Shown: positions 1,901 to 64,000 of the stretch, piece by piece | Position numbering within the stretch: position 1 is the first letter of the stretch | Layout: each line of letters starts with the position of its first letter | IMG/VR virus record: IMGVR_UViG_3300019472_000035 | Location: 1 to 64,000 of that record | Strand: one strand, 5' to 3' | Length of the DNA: 64,000 nt | Source: a virus | The notes under the pieces: generated by a model | What the model was told of the DNA's origin: nothing | Databases searched by the model: none | The model's input: the letters and a program-made list of their open reading frames with translations, nothing else | Made by a program: the position numbers and the translations under genes

Positions 1901-2431
1901 TTATAAAGCCATGATGGCGTAAACTTTATTATTCAGTTCCTCGGTTGTAATCCCAAGATAACGCATTGTGATTGCTTCCGATGAATGATTAAAAACTTGC
2001 ATAAGGTATGCAATTGGCACACCCTTGCGATACGCATGGTATCCGAATGTTTTACGCATGGAATGTGTACCGATGTTTTCAAGACCGCATTTAACGGATG
2101 CTGCCTTGATTTTTCTCCATGCTTGGGTGGTCGTAATATGACCATCGCCAGAACGACTTGGGAACAACCAATGTTTGCAACGAGATGCGTACTCACACAA
2201 CATCTCATAAATTTCTTTTGACAATGCAAACCGTTTGAACTTGCCTGTTTTTTGTTCACGCAATTCCATCATTGGTTTGACATCATCTACGGTCAACCCT
2301 ACTAGGTCGCTAATGCGTAGACCAGAGTTGATACCCAATGTGAACAACATTTTGTCACGGTCGTTTGTCAATGCTTCACGCATTTCATTCACCTTATTAA
2401 TATCTCTGATTGGTTCTGTTACTGTTGCCAT
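1901..2431 (-). CDS. Short tyrosine site-specific recombinase (catalytic domain only, 176 aa)
   Basis: Motifs GLRISDL (box I Arg), HSMRKTFG (H-x-x-R) and HSSEAITMRYLG (His and catalytic Tyr), in the order typical of the phage-integrase/XerD C-terminal domain. Confidence 0.75.
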   Translation of the reverse strand: MATVTEPIRDINKVNEMREALTNDRDKMLFTLGINSGLRISDLVGLTVDDVKPMMELREQKTGKFKRFALSKEIYEMLCEYASRCKHWLFPSRSGDGHITTTQAWRKIKAASVKCGLENIGTHSMRKTFGYHAYRKGVPIAYLMQVFNHSSEAITMRYLGITTEELNNKVYAIMAL

Positions 2432-28160: not shown

Positions 28161-31100
28161 TTATTTCTTTAATTCCAATGGTTTCATCTTGGTGATACAA
28201 TCGCCACGTAATTGGATGTAATACCCAACACCAGCTTTCATTTCAACCAAGTATGAAGACCACATAACATACTTGTTCCCCAGATGGTCAAACACATATG
28301 CCATTGGTTTACCAGTCTTGGTTGTTCTTTGTTTGAAATCAGAAACGATAATCGCCTTGACATCACGACCGTTTGCCAATTCTGTGTTATATTCCATTAA
28401 TGGGTTCTCAAAAGAACACCCAAGGTATTTATACCTGAGCGAAGCTAGAGGGGTCTTAGCGGTCAAATCTGGCGATTCTAGGAGGGTTATGGAGTCATAC
28501 TTAGATGTCCATTCTTGGATTTTCTTTTGTATGTTTGCTAATTTCTTTTCCATGGATTGTAATTGCTTTGGTGTTGCCGTTGGTGATTCTGTTTGTATCA
28601 ACTGTTGGTGGTCACGCAATTTATGATTCCATTCGTCAATCTTATTTTGTGCGTTCTTGCGGTCACTATCGAATGACTTATACTTGGGAATTAATGCCAT
28701 GAGTTCATTTGTTTCCCCCAAGAAGTCTAATGCACCACTACCAACTAAACCCTCTAGTTGCAACTTAGTGTATTTACTAAAGATGGCATCTATTGTATAC
28801 TCTTGTGGTTTCTCAATCTTGTTGATGCCTTTGATGTACGCAAGACCTACACGAATGGCATTACCATCGACTGACCACTGGCGGTCACTATGGCGTAAAT
28901 CTGGTGGTAATATCTCGATTCCCTTGCGTTTAATCTCTTGGATATACGGCAAGATTTTCTCTTGGTTGCCATCTTCGGAGTTGATGGTTGCAACATAAAA
29001 TTCCAACGGATAATGGGTCTTTAAGTATGCCGTTATGTATGCCATGTAGCCGTATGATTGACTGTGAGCCTTGTTAAATCCATAACTTGCCGCTGCAATA
29101 ATCATATCCAAGATTTGTTTCGCCACATCTTTATCTGTTCCGTTCGCAACCGCACGGTCAACAAATTCTGCCGTAATCTCTTGCATTAAATCGTGGTCTT
29201 TTTTACCAACCGCACGTCTTACGGTATCGGCTTCCGCCATTGAATACCCAGCGATAATCTGACATACACGCATGATTTGTTCTTGGAATACCATAATCCC
29301 ATATGTTTCACCCAATGGTTCTTCTAATCGTTCATCCAAGTATTCAAACGGTTTGCCTTGTCTGCGTTCGATATACTCATCCAACATACCTGTTAAAATA
29401 CACGCTGGTCGGTACAATGCTACTACGGCGATTAAATCAACAAAATTCTTTGGTGCAATACTTTTGAGAGTTCTAATCATTCCCGGTGATTTCATTTGAA
29501 ACACACCAAGCGTGTCACCCTTACATAACAAATCCAACGTAGGCTTATCATCCCAAGGTAATTTTGCTAAGTCAAGACTATCTTTGACACCAGCCATCGT
29601 TACACAATCATTGATTACATCCAAGGTTCTAAGACCAAGAATATCCTCTTTTAGAAAACCCATTGATTCTAAATGTTTAAAGTTTGTAGATGCCACAAAT
29701 GTTTCTTCTTTTGTTTTAGAATCTTTTTGCATTTCTAAAGAACAATACTTGGTAATATCTTGGTTTGACACAATGACTGCCGATGCATGTTTCCCAAAGC
29801 CAGTCATGATACCAACCAGTTTCTTAGCGAGTTCAAATAGCTCTGGATGCTTACCATCGTTTACATGGTCTAACTTAGCATACTCTAGGTCGTTATCGTG
29901 ATAATCTTCATCATCATCAAATGAAACATCCTTAATTTTCTTTGAGTATGCATCTGCAATGGTATGGTCTACACCTAGACATCGTGCGGCTTCTTTTAAA
30001 GCACCAGATGCTTTCATGTATGAAAATGTACGACATTGGTATACATATTTATATTTTTCTTCAAGATATTGAATGACTTCTCCACGTCTTACCTTAGAAC
30101 AATCGTTGTCAACGTCTGGGGGTGATACACGATTTGGGTTTGCAAACCGTTCAAAGTACAGATTGTTCGTAATAGCATCCAAAGATGTAATATCGAGTAA
30201 ATATGCACATTCGCATCCTCCGACCGAACCACGCCCATGACCAACTGGGATGTCACGCTTACGACAAGCATCGAGAATATCTTTGGTTATCAACAGATAA
30301 TCCATATACCCAACTTGTTCCAGAATATTAATCTCGTGTGGAACACGTTCGTCAACACGTTTTTTAAACTCTGGTGTGACCTTGCCGATAATCTTTTGTT
30401 TATATCCGTCACGCAAAGCCTGTAAAAACACAGGTTTTACATCCCCATCTTTAACATACTTTGGGTATACATCAAGGTCAAAATCAACCTGTGCGTTACA
30501 TTTGTCAAAAATAACATTGGTATTCTTAACCATCGTTTCAACCATATCAATACCGAATTGCGGATACAGACGGTCAAACACTTGTGCTTTCGATTGGATA
30601 AAGAAGTCGTTTGAACCATAATATTGGTCTTCATCATCATCTTGTGAACGACCACGGAACGCTTTATGTAAAGCATAGTCTTCCTCATGAACATAATGGC
30701 TATCGCAAGCTGCAATCAATGGTACATCATATTTTGCACCCATTTCTGCAACCATTGCATTAAAACGCTTTTGGTCTTCATGTTGATACGTATGGATTTC
30801 AAAATACAAGTCGTCACCGAAGATGTCTTTGAACTGCGGAATTAAAGACTCACGGTTATCACCTTTTAGCCATCCACCCATGCAAGCAGATGTACAGATT
30901 AAACCCTCGGAGTACTGCTTGATTATATCAAGGTCAATTCTTGACTTGTAATAATAATGTCGATGTGCTTCCGTTGTCAATCTAAACAGGTTTTCAAGAC
31001 CAACTTGATTCTTCGCAAGAAACAATATATGTGAATACGATTTATCTTTGATGGTCACATCATACGTATAGTACAACTCTGACCCCATCAACAGTTTCAA

Positions 31101-31307
31101 ATTCGTGTTGTGTTTCTTGTTATATTTCTGTAGATGCACATATGTGTCAATCAATCCAGAGCAACCGTTATGGTCTGTCAATGCAAAACCACGTTGCCCC
31201 AATTCGTGTACACGCTGGATGATGCCATCTACGGAACTGATTGCATCTTTCATCCCATAGTTTGAAAACTGTGAGTGTAGATGCGTATGAATAAAGTTAT
31301 CCGCCAT
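28161..31307 (-). CDS. dnaE: DNA polymerase III alpha-type replicative polymerase (DnaE family, PHP domain N-terminus), 1048 aa
   Basis: N-terminal PHP motifs HTHLHSQFS...DGII...ALTDHNGCSG. Later motifs GHGRGSVGGCECAYLLDITSLD and ...FDLDV... follow the usual DnaE domain order. Only large gene on the minus strand. Confidence 0.85.
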   Translation of the reverse strand: MADNFIHTHLHSQFSNYGMKDAISSVDGIIQRVHELGQRGFALTDHNGCSGLIDTYVHLQKYNKKHNTNLKLLMGSELYYTYDVTIKDKSYSHILFLAKNQVGLENLFRLTTEAHRHYYYKSRIDLDIIKQYSEGLICTSACMGGWLKGDNRESLIPQFKDIFGDDLYFEIHTYQHEDQKRFNAMVAEMGAKYDVPLIAACDSHYVHEEDYALHKAFRGRSQDDDEDQYYGSNDFFIQSKAQVFDRLYPQFGIDMVETMVKNTNVIFDKCNAQVDFDLDVYPKYVKDGDVKPVFLQALRDGYKQKIIGKVTPEFKKRVDERVPHEINILEQVGYMDYLLITKDILDACRKRDIPVGHGRGSVGGCECAYLLDITSLDAITNNLYFERFANPNRVSPPDVDNDCSKVRRGEVIQYLEEKYKYVYQCRTFSYMKASGALKEAARCLGVDHTIADAYSKKIKDVSFDDDEDYHDNDLEYAKLDHVNDGKHPELFELAKKLVGIMTGFGKHASAVIVSNQDITKYCSLEMQKDSKTKEETFVASTNFKHLESMGFLKEDILGLRTLDVINDCVTMAGVKDSLDLAKLPWDDKPTLDLLCKGDTLGVFQMKSPGMIRTLKSIAPKNFVDLIAVVALYRPACILTGMLDEYIERRQGKPFEYLDERLEEPLGETYGIMVFQEQIMRVCQIIAGYSMAEADTVRRAVGKKDHDLMQEITAEFVDRAVANGTDKDVAKQILDMIIAAASYGFNKAHSQSYGYMAYITAYLKTHYPLEFYVATINSEDGNQEKILPYIQEIKRKGIEILPPDLRHSDRQWSVDGNAIRVGLAYIKGINKIEKPQEYTIDAIFSKYTKLQLEGLVGSGALDFLGETNELMALIPKYKSFDSDRKNAQNKIDEWNHKLRDHQQLIQTESPTATPKQLQSMEKKLANIQKKIQEWTSKYDSITLLESPDLTAKTPLASLRYKYLGCSFENPLMEYNTELANGRDVKAIIVSDFKQRTTKTGKPMAYVFDHLGNKYVMWSSYLVEMKAGVGYYIQLRGDCITKMKPLELKK

Positions 31308-31335
31308 ATTTTACCTCCGATGAAAATTCTTAAAT

Positions 31336-31378
31336 TCACTATTGACAGTATACCACAACTTGTGCGATAATACAAGTG
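31336..31378. promoter_or_regulatory. Face-to-face divergent promoters: plus strand TTGACA(31344)-N19-ATAATA toward the SSB gene, minus strand TTGTAT-N17-TGgTATACT toward dnaE
   Basis: The -35 of the + promoter overlaps the -10 of the - promoter (TTGACAGTATACC). A GGAGGT RBS precedes dnaE on the - strand. Confidence 0.6.
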
Positions 31379-31429
31379 CGGAAAGTTTTACCGCAAAAGT
31401 ATTTTTCCACAGAAAAGGAACAAAAGAAT

Positions 31430-32032
31430 ATGGCAAAAGAAAAACCACTTGACAAGATTACTGATGTAATGACACCTGTTGGTGAATCTGTGTTTGTGAA
31501 AATCAATGGGGTTATTGACGACTTCGCTGGTGGTCGCAAGTATACGGTAACGATGCACTTGGACGATGCAGATGCAGAAGCCTTGAAAGAAAAGTTGGTT
31601 AAAATCTGGGAGTCTTCCAACACTTGCAAACAACGTGAAGAAAACGGTAAAGAAACAGACCGTCCAACATTCACTTTGACCAAGAAAAAAGACTATGGAT
31701 ACCAATTAAAGGCATCTACGCAAGTAGAGTTCACCGACAAAAATGGTGACACACGTGAGAATGTGGTACGTTTGGTTGACGGTGATAAAAAACCAATGGA
31801 TGAAAAGACTGCTATCTGGAGTGGCTCTAAGATTGCCCTTTGGATTGGTGTACGTCCATACGAAACTGCTATGATGTACGGTGTATCTCTCAAACTCAAA
31901 GGCATTCAAGTCATTGACCTTGTGACTGGTGGTGCTGGTGGTGATTTCGGTGGCTCTGCATCCGATGATGTTGGCTCTTATGGTTCTTCCATGAGTGACA
32001 CATTTGACACTTCCGAAGACATCCCATTCTAA
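31430..32032 (+). CDS. ssb: Single-stranded DNA-binding protein-like (acidic C-terminal tail ending DIPF)
   Basis: C-terminus ...SDTFDTSEDIPF mimics the canonical SSB D-D-D-I-P-F tail. A Gly-rich linker precedes it. The N-terminal domain is not a textbook OB fold by eye. Confidence 0.6.
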   Translation: MAKEKPLDKITDVMTPVGESVFVKINGVIDDFAGGRKYTVTMHLDDADAEALKEKLVKIWESSNTCKQREENGKETDRPTFTLTKKKDYGYQLKASTQVEFTDKNGDTRENVVRLVDGDKKPMDEKTAIWSGSKIALWIGVRPYETAMMYGVSLKLKGIQVIDLVTGGAGGDFGGSASDDVGSYGSSMSDTFDTSEDIPF

Positions 32033-32075
32033 CAAAAGAATTACCTTGGTCTACAACAGAATATTGAGAACTAAA

Positions 32076-32112
32076 ATCAACCCAAGTCAAATACGGCTTG
32101 GGTCTTTTGGCG
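32076..32112 (+). terminator. Terminator ACCCAAG tcaaatacggc TTGGGT + CTTTTGG
   Basis: 7-bp stem followed by a T-run after ssb. Confidence 0.6.
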
Positions 32113-32139
32113 TTCAATCAATGGTTGCATATTCTACAC

Positions 32140-32375
32140 AAAACATACGATTAAAATTCATAAAAATACATAAGAAAATCACTTGACAAAATTAGACTTT
32201 TGTGATACCCTATCAAACCTAAGTTTAAAACATAAGAAAATACTATAGTTTACCCTCCTATGTGAAAACAAAAGTTTCATACAAGGGTTTTCTCTCTTAT
32301 GTTTTTCACCTAGGTTTAAAACTTATGTCCATACCTAAGGTATGCTCCTAGGGTTAAAAACATAAGTGAATACTT
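32140..32375. repeat. Iteron-like cluster: at least 5 copies of (T)TTAAAAC(A/T)TAAG / AAAACATAAG in both orientations
   Basis: Copies at 32148(+), 32232(+), 32297(-), 32321(-), 32360(+). Each is preceded by cctaRgtttaaaac-like sequence. Confidence 0.6.
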
Positions 32376-32379
32376 GTTT

Positions 32380-32428
32380 GGTTATCTTTTGTATTCTTCA
32401 CTTACGTTCAGAAATACAAAAGATAACA
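32380..32428. repeat. Perfect 15-bp inverted repeat GTTATCTTTTGTATT ... AATACAAAAGATAAC (19-nt spacer)
   Basis: Direct reading; lies between the iteron cluster and the early promoter. Confidence 0.7.
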
Positions 32429-32498
32429 CGAAACTGGAGAAAACGGCAAAGCCGTAACCGCCCTTGGCGGTTGTTACAGGTCAGATAATAATTTGTGT

Positions 32499-32527
32499 TG
32501 ACTTGTCCATTTACGTATGGTACAATG
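32499..32527 (+). promoter_or_regulatory. Early promoter TTGACT-N17-TACAAT preceded by TATGG (family motif)
   Basis: ttgacttgtccatttacgtatggTACAATg; drives the 32569 operon. Confidence 0.75.
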
Positions 32528-32568
32528 TATGTGTATCAAGTCGGAAAGAAATGAAAGGAGGTCATACA

Positions 32569-32910
32569 ATGACTGCACAAAACTTTATCGACAAGGACTT
32601 TAAGAAGAAAGCATGGACACTTGCTATGATGTACTTCAAGAAATGTACAACCAATGGTGCGTTCCATAACGGCAAACCGTCTTCGGAATTTTTTAAAGTC
32701 CGTTCGTTCTTCATGCAGATTGACGAAAACTCAATGTTGAAACTGTACAAGTACATGGATACACTAGAGAAAACAGAAATGTCACTTACCGATGTGTTCA
32801 TTGCAGCAAACGCACTTAATTCACAACAGTTCGCAAAGAAGAATACGAATACGGTTGTTCGTGAACGACAAGCCTTTGATTTAGAGAAGTGGTTTGACGA
32901 TAATGCGTAA
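32569..32910 (+). CDS. Hypothetical early protein
   Basis: AAAGGAGG RBS then ATG at 32569. Confidence 0.6.
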   Translation: MTAQNFIDKDFKKKAWTLAMMYFKKCTTNGAFHNGKPSSEFFKVRSFFMQIDENSMLKLYKYMDTLEKTEMSLTDVFIAANALNSQQFAKKNTNTVVRERQAFDLEKWFDDNA

Positions 32911-33331
32911 AGTCAAACAACTTGGATTTTTGGTCGTGAACAAACAACAACCAAAACCAAAACGATACATCAGACGATTAACCGTCAACGGTCTAATCAG
33001 ACGAAAGAAACTTTTTAGATTTTGGTATACCTTGAATTGCACGAAAGAAGAAGATATTTTGACTGCATTAAAAGAACCAAAAGCAGTTGTTATCTTTGAT
33101 GCGTTTGCCGTTGGTTCTCTCATTAGACTAACCTTGAATGGGCGTGTCGAGTCACATACGCTAAATTCTGACAACTGTACATTCGGTTGGTACAAGCGAT
33201 GCATTACAACGTATTTGTTCATTGTTGACCATAATAGGAATCGCACATTTGTATTTGGTCACAAAAAACGTAAGATTACCACAGAACGAGAATTATGGGA
33301 ATCAAGCGATATAAATTATTGGGGGGCATAA
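32903..33331 (+). CDS. Hypothetical basic protein
   Basis: ATG at 32903 overlapping the previous stop. Confidence 0.5.
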   Translation: MRKVKQLGFLVVNKQQPKPKRYIRRLTVNGLIRRKKLFRFWYTLNCTKEEDILTALKEPKAVVIFDAFAVGSLIRLTLNGRVESHTLNSDNCTFGWYKRCITTYLFIVDHNRNRTFVFGHKKRKITTERELWESSDINYWGA

Positions 33332-33332
33332 C

Positions 33333-33971
33333 ATGGATTCATTTATTCGACTACAACTGACAACGGCAACGATTGTCAGACATAATCTAATACATCTGTT
33401 GGAGTTTATACGGATAAACCATATCAGTTCAATTCAGAAAACGGAAGATGGCTGGCTGGTATTGGAAAACGATAAAAACGCATGGACACGTAGGGCAACT
33501 GATTATACGTTCATTGGTATTAATGATGTTCTTCCAGATGGTGTTATATCGGTTGAAAACTTTTACCAAAATAGATATGAGTTCTTAGACAAGATATTTA
33601 CAGTCAACGAAGATATATCCCAAGCGATATACACTTTGTATGATGCTTTAATCAAGCTGGCGAATATCTACCAAGAGCCATACAATCCAAAGGATACATT
33701 GTTCTTGTATGACCATGCATCCATCTATAGTCTTGACAATAGCGGAGAACAACACTTTGTTACACACATTGAGAATGTACCAAAATACATTCCATTCAAA
33801 CAAGTGTGTCAAGACAAAGATATTATCTCGGTAAGAACGGCAGTCAGTCAACTGTATGATTTGAAATGTTGTATTGACCCATCTATTGACTATGAGATGC
33901 AACAACAGTTAAGAACACTACAGGAGGAATACCCAGATGAATACAATTTCAACCTTAAAGTACAAGATTGA
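33333..33971 (+). CDS. Hypothetical protein
   Basis: 212-aa ORF; no motif recognised. Confidence 0.5.
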   Translation: MDSFIRLQLTTATIVRHNLIHLLEFIRINHISSIQKTEDGWLVLENDKNAWTRRATDYTFIGINDVLPDGVISVENFYQNRYEFLDKIFTVNEDISQAIYTLYDALIKLANIYQEPYNPKDTLFLYDHASIYSLDNSGEQHFVTHIENVPKYIPFKQVCQDKDIISVRTAVSQLYDLKCCIDPSIDYEMQQQLRTLQEEYPDEYNFNLKVQD

Positions 33972-34851
33972 CTTACAGGAGTTAGTCGAGGAATATACCA
34001 CATTATCACGAAACGGTGGTAAAATTCCAAGGGGTACTTGTCCAATATGTCACGGTGACAATCCAACAGAGTTTTGTATACTTGGTGACAGATACTACTG
34101 TCATAAATGTGGTTCATCTGGTGATGCAATCGGTTTTTATTCCGAAGTAGAGGGTTTACCGTTCTATCAAGCGGTGGAAGCCTTGGCAGAAAAATATGAG
34201 GTATCAACAGACGACCCTGTGTATCAAAAACAGAAAAGCATCGTTGGTCAGAATACGAAAGTTGCTATCAAGTATCATAAAGCCGTTGATGCCGTTCGTG
34301 AATACATGAATGTCAAGCGAGGTATTAACGATGATACGTTGGAAGATTTTCTGATTGGTTATGACAAGGGTGGTTTCTTGGGTGTACAATCGTCTGGTAT
34401 CGTGATTCCAATTCAAGATGCCTATGGTCGTATTGTTGGGTTTTCCAAGAGAAGATTGGAAGAAACCAATGAACCAAAATACAAGAATACCAAAGAAGAC
34501 GATGTGTTTGTCAAACGACAACTGTTGTTTAATTACCATCGTGCGGTTAAAATGCTGCATCCGAATGGTGTGCTTCATGTTGCCGAGGGGTATCTTGATG
34601 TCATGTCTGCACACCAACAGGGTATTCCATGCGTTGGGTATCTTGGTGGACGATTGACAAAAGACCAGATTGGTTTACTCTGGGAGTTACAAAAGCGATA
34701 CAACGGAGATATTACGTTTGCATTGGCGGTTGATAATCCAGAGTGTGATGCGACTGGTCGTAAAGCATTGTTAAAAACAAGGGAAGACATTAATAAATAC
34801 GCACCAGATTTAAACGTGCGTGTGGTCAAGTATCCGAAAAATGATGAGTAA
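33937..34851 (+). CDS. dnaG: DNA primase (CHC2 zinc finger + TOPRIM, DnaG-like)
   Basis: CPICHGDNPTEFCILGDRYYCHKCGSSGD zinc finger, then TOPRIM-like VAEGYLDVMS...AVDNPECDATG. Confidence 0.8.
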   Translation: MNTISTLKYKIDLQELVEEYTTLSRNGGKIPRGTCPICHGDNPTEFCILGDRYYCHKCGSSGDAIGFYSEVEGLPFYQAVEALAEKYEVSTDDPVYQKQKSIVGQNTKVAIKYHKAVDAVREYMNVKRGINDDTLEDFLIGYDKGGFLGVQSSGIVIPIQDAYGRIVGFSKRRLEETNEPKYKNTKEDDVFVKRQLLFNYHRAVKMLHPNGVLHVAEGYLDVMSAHQQGIPCVGYLGGRLTKDQIGLLWELQKRYNGDITFALAVDNPECDATGRKALLKTREDINKYAPDLNVRVVKYPKNDE

Positions 34852-62868: not shown

Positions 62869-62962
62869 TCCAATAATGCACAACCCAATTCCAAAAAATT
62901 AAAAACCAAAAAATAAAAAACAAGATTTCAAAAAATAAAACGCAGAATTTTCATAATTCGTG

Positions 62963-62992
62963 TTGACGTTTACAATCTTGATATGGTATAAT
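62963..62992 (+). promoter_or_regulatory. Promoter TTGACG-N18-TGgTATAAT (same TATGGTATAATG family)
   Basis: gtgttgacgtttacaatcttgatatggTATAATg. Confidence 0.65.
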
Positions 62993-62998
62993 GTGGTT

Positions 62999-63179
62999 GT
63001 CGGTGGTTAGTCACCTCTATAATATGTCTAATTTATACACTACAAAACAAAAACCACCTTCATTAACTCGTTGTGTAGTCAATCGAAACCACCGACAAAC
63101 ATTTGATATAAACCACGGTATATCACGGTAACACCACCGTTTGGTGTGACCATTGTCCACGATACCGTGGTCTTTTTTT
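62999..63179 (+). ncRNA. Candidate ~180-nt small noncoding RNA (promoter to terminator, no ORF with RBS)
   Basis: A 12-bp perfect long-range stem TTGTCGGTGGTT (62997-63008) / AACCACCGACAA (63087-63098). Then a compound terminator hairpin ACCACGGTAT...ATACCGTGG (63112-63170) + T8. Confidence 0.5.
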
Positions 63180-63660
63180 ATGTCTATACATATGAATGAT
63201 TGTCCATGTGTTCATCCATGTGTTGCACGTGGTCAATCTACGGTGCGTACCATCATCACATACATACGCACATATCAAACAATATCTAATGTTTGCACAT
63301 ATTACATATATTCCACATAATAAATACGTTGACCGCATCGCACGCTGCATCCATTATTAATACCATTGATAATACCATGTGTGACAACCATAATTAATGC
63401 CGTTCGTATGACCATGTGATACAACCCATGTATCAACCACATGATATTCTATGATGATAATACCAATAAAATCCATTCTATGGCTCTCTGTGGTGCGTTT
63501 ACACGAAGTGACGTATGTTTATATACCCCACCTATTTTAAACGCCATATAACGCAAATAAACGAATTTTCGTATATCTCCACGGAATTTTTAACCCTATA
63601 TATACATATGCTACCCCATATATAATAAACAATGATTATCACCACGGATTTTTTATTTAT

Positions 63661-63724
63661 AGATACATATATATATACATATGTCCACCTATTTTTTAAT
63701 ACATATGTATATATATATGTATCT
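63661..63724. repeat. Perfect 24-bp inverted repeat AGATACATATATATATACATATGT / ACATATGTATATATATATGTATCT separated by 16 bp
   Basis: Direct reading; (TA)n-rich palindrome in the noncoding junction region. Confidence 0.7.
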
Positions 63725-64000
63725 ATTTGTTTTTTCATCGGTACTTCTAGTTGACCGCCCAAGTCGTTCTCAATGCGTTCTCAATCAGTAGTCACACGCT
63801 GCACACACGACCATTCCATGGATTACTTTTTGTAATACACTCATGCGTTTTAATCAATCGAAGAAATTCAATATATTTATATCGAATGTTTTCTATATGG
63901 TTGCATACAATAGGAATATACAAAATCGTTCTATGGTGTAGACAATTGAACACAACTATAATTATAACAATTGTATTGTATACAATATAATAACGTACGT

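Follow-up and report, generated by a model that had tools for sequence, protein, structure and literature searches.

The closest described systems to the locus examined here are phage origins that depend on transcription. In Ceduovirus c2, the first two early promoters, PE1 and PE2, enclose a non-coding sequence that is the origin of replication (ori), and the non-coding transcript from PE1 is needed for ori (PMC7150918). Among Ceduovirus phages, conservation of ori exceeds 90% within each type, and the types are unrelated to one another (PMC7150918). In phage T4, oriF and oriG consist of a promoter and an A+T-rich unwinding element and are used through an R-loop (PMC3016281). We analysed a comparable layout in a 64,000-nt stretch of viral DNA (positions 1 to 64,000 of IMG/VR record IMGVR_UViG_3300019472_000035; hereafter the window). 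There, a non-coding gap of 536 bp lies inside the replication module, with the gene of a Gp2.5-like single-stranded DNA (ssDNA)-binding protein (SSB) before it and a primase/helicase operon after it. Our analysis suggests, at a probability of about 0.4, that this gap acts in cis to control replication, in the manner of a transcription-activated origin, together with a module-specific repeat-binding protein.

The likeness to Ceduovirus (c2, bIL67, 923) lies in the architecture. In both cases, about 290-330 bp of non-coding sequence separate two tandem host-type promoters that head an early operon, and in both c2 and our locus the first promoter has no open reading frame (ORF) or ribosome-binding site (RBS) behind it. 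The -10 of our first promoter, P1, and the -35 of the second, P2, are 286 nt apart, and about 333 nt separate the EP1 -10 from the EP2 -35 in the c2 record. As in Ceduovirus, the sequence is highly conserved within a type and barely alignable between types, in genomes that are otherwise similar. There is, however, no sequence similarity to c2 (by blastn and, for the c2 interval, by eye). The c2 interval has no phased repeat array and a folding z-score of -0.17, versus -6.6 here. Moreover, the c2 ori works without phage proteins, whereas the array here co-varies with adjacent phage genes, and our unit, unlike that of c2, ends in a terminator. Origin function has been tested for c2 and is a prediction for the present element.

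With T4 oriF and oriG the locus shares a promoter followed by an A+T-rich element and the lack of a dedicated initiator (here, among the genes scanned); a replisome of phage primase, helicase and phage SSB is likewise common to both (PMC3016281). In contrast to the T4 unwinding element, which needs no specific sequence, the region here is phased, repeated and strongly conserved, and is followed by selected hairpins and a terminator. The primary origin of T7 is a further parallel, and the SSB here is Gp2.5-like, as in T7. The promoters at our locus are of the host sigma-A type, whereas those of T4 are MotA-dependent and those of T7 are served by T7 RNA polymerase. Because the layout is closest to that of these transcription-dependent phage origins, we ranked the origin reading first. 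The element has no homology to any described one; it would belong to a known kind, that of phage origins or early-control regions that give rise to a non-coding transcript.

A preceding sequence-only reading of this DNA had described, just downstream of the end of an SSB gene, a repeat cluster, a perfect 15-bp inverted repeat, a small GC hairpin and a TTGACT-N17-TACAAT promoter ahead of the genes leading to primase and helicase, and had proposed an origin or operator array. All of these features were recovered at the places listed in Table 1, that promoter being P2. What our analysis adds is P1 and a terminator, which put the repeats and the inverted repeat into a discrete, predicted non-coding unit upstream of P2. 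A strict Gram-positive-style promoter pattern, TTGAC[ACT]-N11-13-[AT][AG]TGN-TANNNT, has only seven sites in the 64 kb, all of them plus-strand, where Markov simulations predict 0.25, and both P1 and P2 are among them. The relatives of this phage are metagenomic genomes of 64-72 kb that group tightly together; 102 loci from them reduced to 45 distinct versions of the whole unit, of four types. The -35, the TGTG and the TACCCT of P1 are invariant in all 45, while its spacer and the base preceding the -10 vary, and since the fixed parts are exactly these, we regard P1 as carrying the signature of a promoter. Its -10 is weak and is paired with a perfect -35. P1 is predicted to fire, with a transcription start near 32217-32219. 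A strict-pattern promoter stands at the position of P2 in all 45 versions as well, but this was a filter criterion; the conservation of P2 across clades is visible in inter-clade alignments. Between P1 and P2 we found only non-ATG ORFs without an RBS, none of them conserved between clades, and a coding role of the interval was ruled out, there being no ORF with start plus RBS and no conserved ORF. P2 itself is flanked by GTCAGAT (32480-32486; about -15 relative to the -35) and GTCGGAA (32549-32555; about +20), and the L019 clade has AGTCAGACAAAAACT and AGTCAGAAACAAACT, 87% alike, at the same two positions; these words may form a separate operator pair for P2.

The AAAAC(A/T)TAAG-type repeats noted earlier, in both orientations, proved to be part of a larger structure. 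The word AAAACATAAG occurs exactly at 32227 (+), 32296 (-) and 32357 (+), and with one mismatch at 32140, 32165 and 32265; it has 24 matches window-wide against 12.25 expected, a count that none of 100 shuffles attained. A longer unit, CCTAGGTTTAAAACATAAG, allowing up to 3 mismatches, has three copies, every one in this gap (0.02 expected). These words belong to a phased array of some 19 units, 13 of which lie downstream of P1 and about six upstream of or across it, so that P1 is embedded within the array and in phase with its 13-nt rows. The array shows autocorrelation maxima at lags 13 (z = 4.6), 26 and 39 (z = 5.1), and its lag-13 signal falls in the top 0.2% among 170-nt windows of the whole stretch. 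A+T content reaches 70-82% over 32113-32250 and is about 69% across the array, in a window with a G+C content of about 38%. The array extends about 80 bp upstream of the inferred P1 start and about 170 bp downstream of it. We favour a role at the DNA level because part of the array thus lies upstream of P1 and outside its transcript.

In the sister clades the array has a period of 14-15 nt and other unit cores, with tandem units such as ATACATTGGTTGTTC or AAAACCAYAGTTGWT and autocorrelation z-scores of 4-6.5 at lags 14-15. One unit of the window-clade array is inverted, and copies in opposite orientations let a single strand fold into long hairpins; elsewhere the same 5' two-thirds of the unit consist of plain tandem direct repeats, and no fold is common to the clades. 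The only strongly variable part of 32155-32568 among 18 members of the window clade is a 15-nt patch in the core of the fourth array unit, which reads CCTATGTGAAA here and is of CCTAGG type in relatives. Its variants look like other repeat units (CCTAGGTTTTAAAC, CCTAGGGGTAAAC), and gene conversion between repeat units is a possible cause.

Clustered direct repeats beside an A+T-rich region in a replication module are a feature shared with iteron origins (lambda ori/O, plasmid Rep), and the link between repeat type and a fast-diverging neighbour gene resembles that between iterons and the N-terminal domains of lambdoid O proteins. The 13-nt unit also recalls the 13-mers in the unwinding regions of oriC and RK2 oriV. 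Iteron origins, however, have 3-8 iterons of 17-22 bp, as against about 19 units of 13-15 nt with degenerate cores here. The present locus further differs from them in having its promoter embedded in the array, with the whole unit predicted to be transcribed, and in the absence of a Rep, O or DnaA-like protein among the genes scanned.

Conservation was measured within the window clade (18 genomes). Between 39 and 60% of the third codon positions of the flanking genes vary, whereas the variable columns amount to 12.5% in the array, 0% in 32376-32430 and about 9% from there to the start codon, with 9-13% over 32217-32568. As non-coding 32155-32568 is far less variable than the flanking synonymous sites, we conclude that it is under purifying selection. 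Between clades, conserved islands comprise the terminator hairpin of the SSB gene, P1, the first ~30 transcribed nt, the block GAATACTTGTTTGG, the hairpin-loop motif CACT(T)ACGTTC, a short AGTCAGA and P2, and the array between these islands is replaced from clade to clade. The 14-nt block that joins array and hairpin domain is unique in the window at 0 mismatches; GAATACTTGTTTG served as the search anchor, and its recovery in relatives is therefore no test of the conservation of the block.

Downstream of this block, the hairpin domain consists of the inverted repeat H3, whose loop contains the CACT(T)ACGTTC motif, and two smaller hairpins, H4 and H5. H3 is invariant in the window clade, and among relatives its stem takes at least six distinct sequences that pair completely, one more version having a disrupted inner stem; three of nine core pairs show double changes, and every cell pairs. 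H4 reads ATTGC-ttc-GCAAT in other clades, two pairs having been altered on both sides. We scored covariation in 12 distinct 3' domains over 14 pairs (H3 stem core plus H4), that is, for the 3' domain only. All 168 cells were Watson-Crick paired, and five pairs were changed on both sides and none on one side. The score was reached by none of 500 shuffles, and sliding the partner by 1-3 columns lowered pairing to 28-46%. These results demonstrate that the hairpins are selected as hairpins and are maintained through compensatory change. The test cannot be deepened, because clades at intermediate distance are lacking: in a primase-profile scan of a wider viral set, every real relative was at least 91% identical.

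H5 varies in the same way. It reads AATCGCC/GGCGATT in one clade member, L018, a C-G to U-A change, and AATCGGC-aa-GCCGATT in other clades, where it is followed by GTTTTTT, GTATTTTTCTT or GATTTTTCTT. The T-run behind H5 is clear in three of the four clades (L019, L023 and L170) and weak in the window clade; H5 thus probably terminates the P1 transcript, its U-tail being weak in the window clade. In addition, the H3 loop can pair with sequence upstream of the stem, and this helix is found in every clade: it has 8 bp in the window clade and 7 bp elsewhere (GTAGTGG/TCACTAC), with one G-U on the plus strand, and its flanking pairs have changed on both sides between clades. Since this helix interleaves with H3, the topology is that of a pseudoknot, which requires a single strand. 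The H3-core and H4 stems tested contain no G-U pair and would suit either strand, as RNA or as ssDNA. No second copy of the 3' hairpin domain is present in the window.

The main rival to the origin is a possible, still tentative, reading in which the P1 RNA is itself the product, a separate non-coding transcript some 260 nt long (some 310 nt in the sister clades). Such an RNA could work in cis, as a leader or attenuator setting how far transcription reads through into the replication operon. It could also work in trans, as a multivalent scaffold or sponge whose 12-13 phased units bind an oligomeric, co-evolving phage protein, with the 3' pseudoknot-hairpin domain providing stability or a second binding site. 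The invariance of P1 in 45 of 45 versions, a clear plus-strand intrinsic terminator in three of four clades and the lack of a conserved ORF or RBS all fit such an RNA. So do the strong folding of the plus strand (-79.1 kcal/mol, z = -6.6), the compensatory changes in H3, H4 and H5 and the pseudoknot, which pairs in all clades and whose G-U is possible on the plus strand only. A single-stranded ligand would also accommodate the shift in period from 13 to 14-15 nt more easily than DNA sites in helical phase. Against this, about 80 bp of the array are outside the RNA, its 5' two-thirds have no fold common to the clades, and the inverted unit of the window clade would appear in it as the complement of the motif. 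Every stem change is of the Watson-Crick type, and folding of the minus strand (-90.5 kcal/mol, z = -7.35) is no weaker than that of the plus strand. No Rfam family matches: with Rfam 15, only tRNAs were found at gathering thresholds, and nothing below E = 0.18 appeared in the region in a search up to E = 10. Furthermore, P2 directly downstream would make an attenuator partly redundant.

A more specific version of the RNA reading, which we regard as doubtful, would make the 260-310-nt transcript a new kind of phage non-coding RNA. Its array would wrap or sequester an oligomeric co-evolving protein (gp32903, gp33333 or the Gp2.5-like SSB), anchored by the pseudoknotted hairpin, and phage replication would be started under the control of this RNA-protein particle in place of an initiator bound to DNA in the classical way. 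If the RNA reading is true, the locus represents a new phage RNA class. By comparison, an RNA of the type III toxin-antitoxin kind or a decoy repeat RNA is highly improbable. The order of promoter, tandem direct repeats, terminator and ORF is superficially alike. The repeat units of ToxI, CptI and TenpI, however, are near-identical and 34-45 nt long, whereas those here are degenerate and of 13-15 nt; a strong separate promoter stands between terminator and ORF; and gp32569 has no ToxN-like or other Pfam/PHROG match, in a comparison that did not include PADLOC. Some sister-clade units resemble AUACAuuGGuUGU, and a CsrB-like GGA sponge was considered; it was rejected, as GGA is not conserved and the cores of the window clade are AAG/AGG. 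A CRISPR mini-array, a phi29-like pRNA and a retron msr/msd were likewise rejected on unit size and/or absent partner genes.

The array changes together with its neighbours, which is what the proposed repeat-binding protein of the origin reading would predict. Between the conserved DnaE and primase genes lies a variable block (identities in Table 1) that marks a specificity or arms-race module. In 33 of 34 distinct genomes, the array class matches that of gp32569, gp32903 and gp33333, L170 being a partial exception. In the recombinant L159, the linkage of the array with SSB and primase is broken and that with the three genes is kept. In L170, the SSB linkage is broken and the link to gp32569, 86% identical, is kept; its primase is of class B, which is also found with array B. 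The L170 array is about 80% like the L023 type with changed unit cores, and its gp32903 and gp33333 have diverged (40-52%). Such co-segregation is the pattern expected of an iteron-initiator pair, and simple physical linkage would also produce it. The most clade-divergent genes, gp32903 and gp33333, are candidates for the repeat-binding factor. The diversity of gp33333 is high in its own right, with 102 clusters at 90% identity versus 22 for gp32569 and 8 for gp32903; diversifying selection on it, for example against host defence, is possible.

The same pattern could come from an operator array, in which a small phage regulator such as gp32569 polymerises over P1 and works a P1/P2 timing switch with no direct part in initiation, a reading that we consider unlikely. 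In R1 parC/ParR, the pSM19035 omega heptads and tubC/TubR, a downstream gene encodes a small protein that binds cooperatively to many contiguous 7-12-bp repeats in phase around a promoter. Our array resembles these in surrounding P1 and in being followed by small ORFs. That the repeats lie in phase on P1 and its start site and to either side of them, that the array class co-segregates with the downstream genes, that purifying selection is strong and that a weak -10 with a perfect -35 is typical of a regulated promoter would all suit a regulator. Unlike those arrays, however, ours lies mostly downstream of the start, and its hairpin/terminator domain has no counterpart there. The ~170 bp beyond the start exceed what is needed to repress one promoter, P1 has no known product that would give the switch an evident purpose, and the hairpin domain, with its compensatory changes and conserved loop, would be left unexplained. 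No helix-turn-helix or ribbon-helix-helix family was found in gp32569, gp32903 or gp33333, and no ParM, ParA or TubZ-type motor among the genes scanned. As operators of P2 the repeats would be badly placed, since they overlap and flank P1 and lie more than 110 bp upstream of P2; the inverted repeat and the GC hairpins behave as selected hairpins and do not resemble a dimer operator. The proposal of the sequence-only reading, an origin or operator array, stands as the best class for a phased, selected, co-segregating and A+T-rich (~70-80%) site in the replication module. The anatomy differs from that first described, and the origin or operator role is what the site suggests by inference.

Returning to the transcription-activated origin, we propose the following course of events. 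P1, a host sigma-A-type promoter inside the A+T-rich array, would transcribe about 260 nt of non-coding sequence, in a unit whose 3' end, directly before P2, is made up of the 15-bp hairpin with its pseudoknot, the pair of GC hairpins and a terminator. A clade-specific phage protein, with gp32903, gp33333 or gp32569 as candidates, would coat the array, and transcription from P1 would open the A+T-rich array or leave an RNA-DNA hybrid there. The hairpin domain, as RNA or as displaced strand, would then offer the entry or priming site for the conserved primase, helicase and DnaE machinery. Both protein binding to the array and the start of replication at the element (32.1-32.5 kb) are what we infer from this arrangement. 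No Rep, lambda O, DnaA-like or RepA family was found in the 32 ORFs scanned with PHROGs and/or Pfam, and a start based on transcription or structure fits because no initiator homologue is present among these genes.

Several observations weigh against this proposal. The cumulative GC-skew check that the sequence-only reading had suggested was run and gave no origin signal, GC and AT skew following gene orientation only. A Rho-independent terminator closing the P1 unit suits a released RNA better than a persistent primer hybrid, and the transcript has no G-richness that would favour an R-loop (GC skew -0.10 to +0.13). No DNA-binding fold or family was found for any neighbouring protein. Periods of 13-15 bp are off helical phase, differ by clade and are unusual next to classical iterons of 17-22 bp. 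A larger non-coding region (62869-64000 plus 1-1640) is an equal or better origin candidate, and the c2 region, being without sequence similarity and not unusually structured, offers a parallel in architecture only. If the origin reading is nevertheless true, initiation in the transcription-dependent style of c2 and T4 oriF extends to a replisome of DnaE, DnaG, DnaB and Gp2.5 types, and gp32903 and gp33333 are nominated for a new origin-binding function. The phage group is common in human-associated metagenomes and has no cultured relative, and the element now has defined parts, namely a promoter set in a phased array, hairpins that covary, a terminator and three genes that co-segregate as a block.

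Table 1. Features of the replication control region and its neighbourhood, with protein identities between the window clade and the other clades
Feature	Position	Strand	Identity to other clades	Remarks
DnaE-type polymerase gene	28161-31307	-	90-93%	Divergent, just upstream of the SSB gene
Gp2.5-like SSB gene	31376-32032	+	62-70%	phrog_112, E = 1.4e-17; Pfam SBB_T7 just under cut-off; start taken as first GTG in the ORF, real start may be further in
Non-coding gap SSB-gp32569	32033-32568			
Candidate SSB terminator hairpin	32080-32108	+		CCCAAGTC-aaatac-GGCTTGGG, then TCTTTT; read from the sequence
Phased array	32139-32385	+		Units of ~13 nt, consensus ACnTAWGTTTaaa; includes the AAAACATAAG words
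P1	32183-32211	+		-35 TTGACA (32183-88), 12-nt spacer, TGTGA, -10 TACCCT (32206-11)
Hypervariable patch	32252-32266	+		Core of fourth array unit
Loop-to-upstream pairing	32363-32404	+		TAAGTGAA (32363-70) with TTCACTTA (32397-404)
Block joining array and hairpin	32368-32381	+		GAATACTTGTTTGG; kept in all clades
H3	32381-32395 / 32413-32427	+		Perfect 15-bp inverted repeat GTTATCTTTTGTATT / AATACAAAAGATAAC; 17-nt loop
H4	32443-32455	+		ACGGC-aaa-GCCGT; not listed in the sequence-only reading
H5, candidate P1-transcript terminator	32456-32478	+		AACCGCC-ctt-GGCGGTT (32456-32472), then GTTACA; the small GC hairpin of the sequence-only reading
P2	32498-32526	+		TTGACT-17-TATGg-TACAAT; 10/12 consensus positions plus TG; strict-pattern match
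RBS and gp32569 ORF	32554-32910	+	69-74%	RBS AAAGGAGG (32554-61), ATG 32569; 113 aa; first operon gene
gp32903	32903-33331	+	37-45%	142 aa, basic, beta-rich; no family match
gp33333	33333-33971	+	25-35%	212 aa, acidic; no family match
DnaG-type primase	33937-34851	+	92-97%	Pfam Zn_ribbon_DnaG, DNAG_N, Toprim; PHROG DNA primase
DnaB-type helicase	40764-41921			

As to the flanking genes, the SSB is 93-97% identical inside the window clade. The hairpin behind its gene is almost invariant in all clades and, read from its sequence, would serve as the SSB terminator, although a simple terminator scan did not flag it. In the sister clades (L019-L024), the DnaE gene carries an intein (1317 aa versus 1048 aa here) or is split by an inserted HNH endonuclease gene. 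gp32569 has no Pfam or PHROG match, and its homologues, with full-length identities of 70-91%, are confined to this phage group. A sequence search of the PDB gave no match for gp32903 or gp33333. The predicted model of gp32903 (pLDDT 71) has nothing under E = 0.018 in Foldseek against the PDB, and only a weak likeness to a PH/PTB-like beta-sandwich (TM ~0.4). The AlphaFold model of gp33333 (pLDDT 53) was too poor for use, and the family is tiny, with 5 representative clusters among 1.84 billion proteins.

Searches for more distant relatives gave little. Neither near nor distant blastn of 31300-34000 against 50,697 phage records, c2 included, returned a match. By tblastn against the phage collection, the SSB matched only Pelagibacter phage SSBs of about 29% identity, and DnaE reached at most about 33%. 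With best protein identities of about 30-33%, there is no cultured relative for comparison. A primase-profile scan of isolate genomes found no relatives, and hence no host or prophage context.

Other repeats and elements were observed elsewhere in the window. A second phased array, at 355-760, consists of some 28 units, each close to 13 nt in length, such as ACAATCGTTATCT, ACATATGTTACAT and ACGATTGGTTAAA. It lies about 31.7 kb from the gap array, shares with it the skeleton ACAnnnGTT and gives the sole lag-13 signal in the window that is stronger. In clade B this left-end array keeps its 13-nt period while the gap array has 14-15 nt. The idea of one protein reading both arrays is thus unsupported, the left-end array not changing in concert with the gap array between clades.

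The region at 62869-64000 plus 1-1640 amounts to about 2.8 kb of non-coding DNA if the ends are contiguous, and is packed with repeats, both direct and inverted, and with words of the CATATG type. Both this region and the gap are enriched in the heptamer ACATAAG, each having five of its 17 window sites. The region is a candidate for an alternative origin or packaging site. Within it, 62964-63180 shows, by eye, a strong promoter-like TTGACG-17-TGgTATAAT, about 190 nt without an obvious ORF and the hairpin CCACGataCCGTGG with a T run, and is possibly a second small RNA gene. A 25-bp inverted repeat at 1561-1628 (92% complementary, 18-nt loop, then TTTTCGTTT), the arms of which hold ACATAAG, is probably a bidirectional terminator; it lies a little upstream of where the minus-strand ORF 1642-1887 ends. 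Beside the large non-coding region, 1901-2431 (-) encodes a 176-aa protein with a tyrosine recombinase catalytic domain only (Pfam Phage_integrase, E = 1e-24), which may act in integration, in dimer resolution or otherwise. In the tRNA cluster, Rfam gave five tRNA matches versus three from ARAGORN; the extra ones, at 42670-42727 and 43459-43515, are 57-58 nt long and represent truncated or unusual tRNA-like elements.

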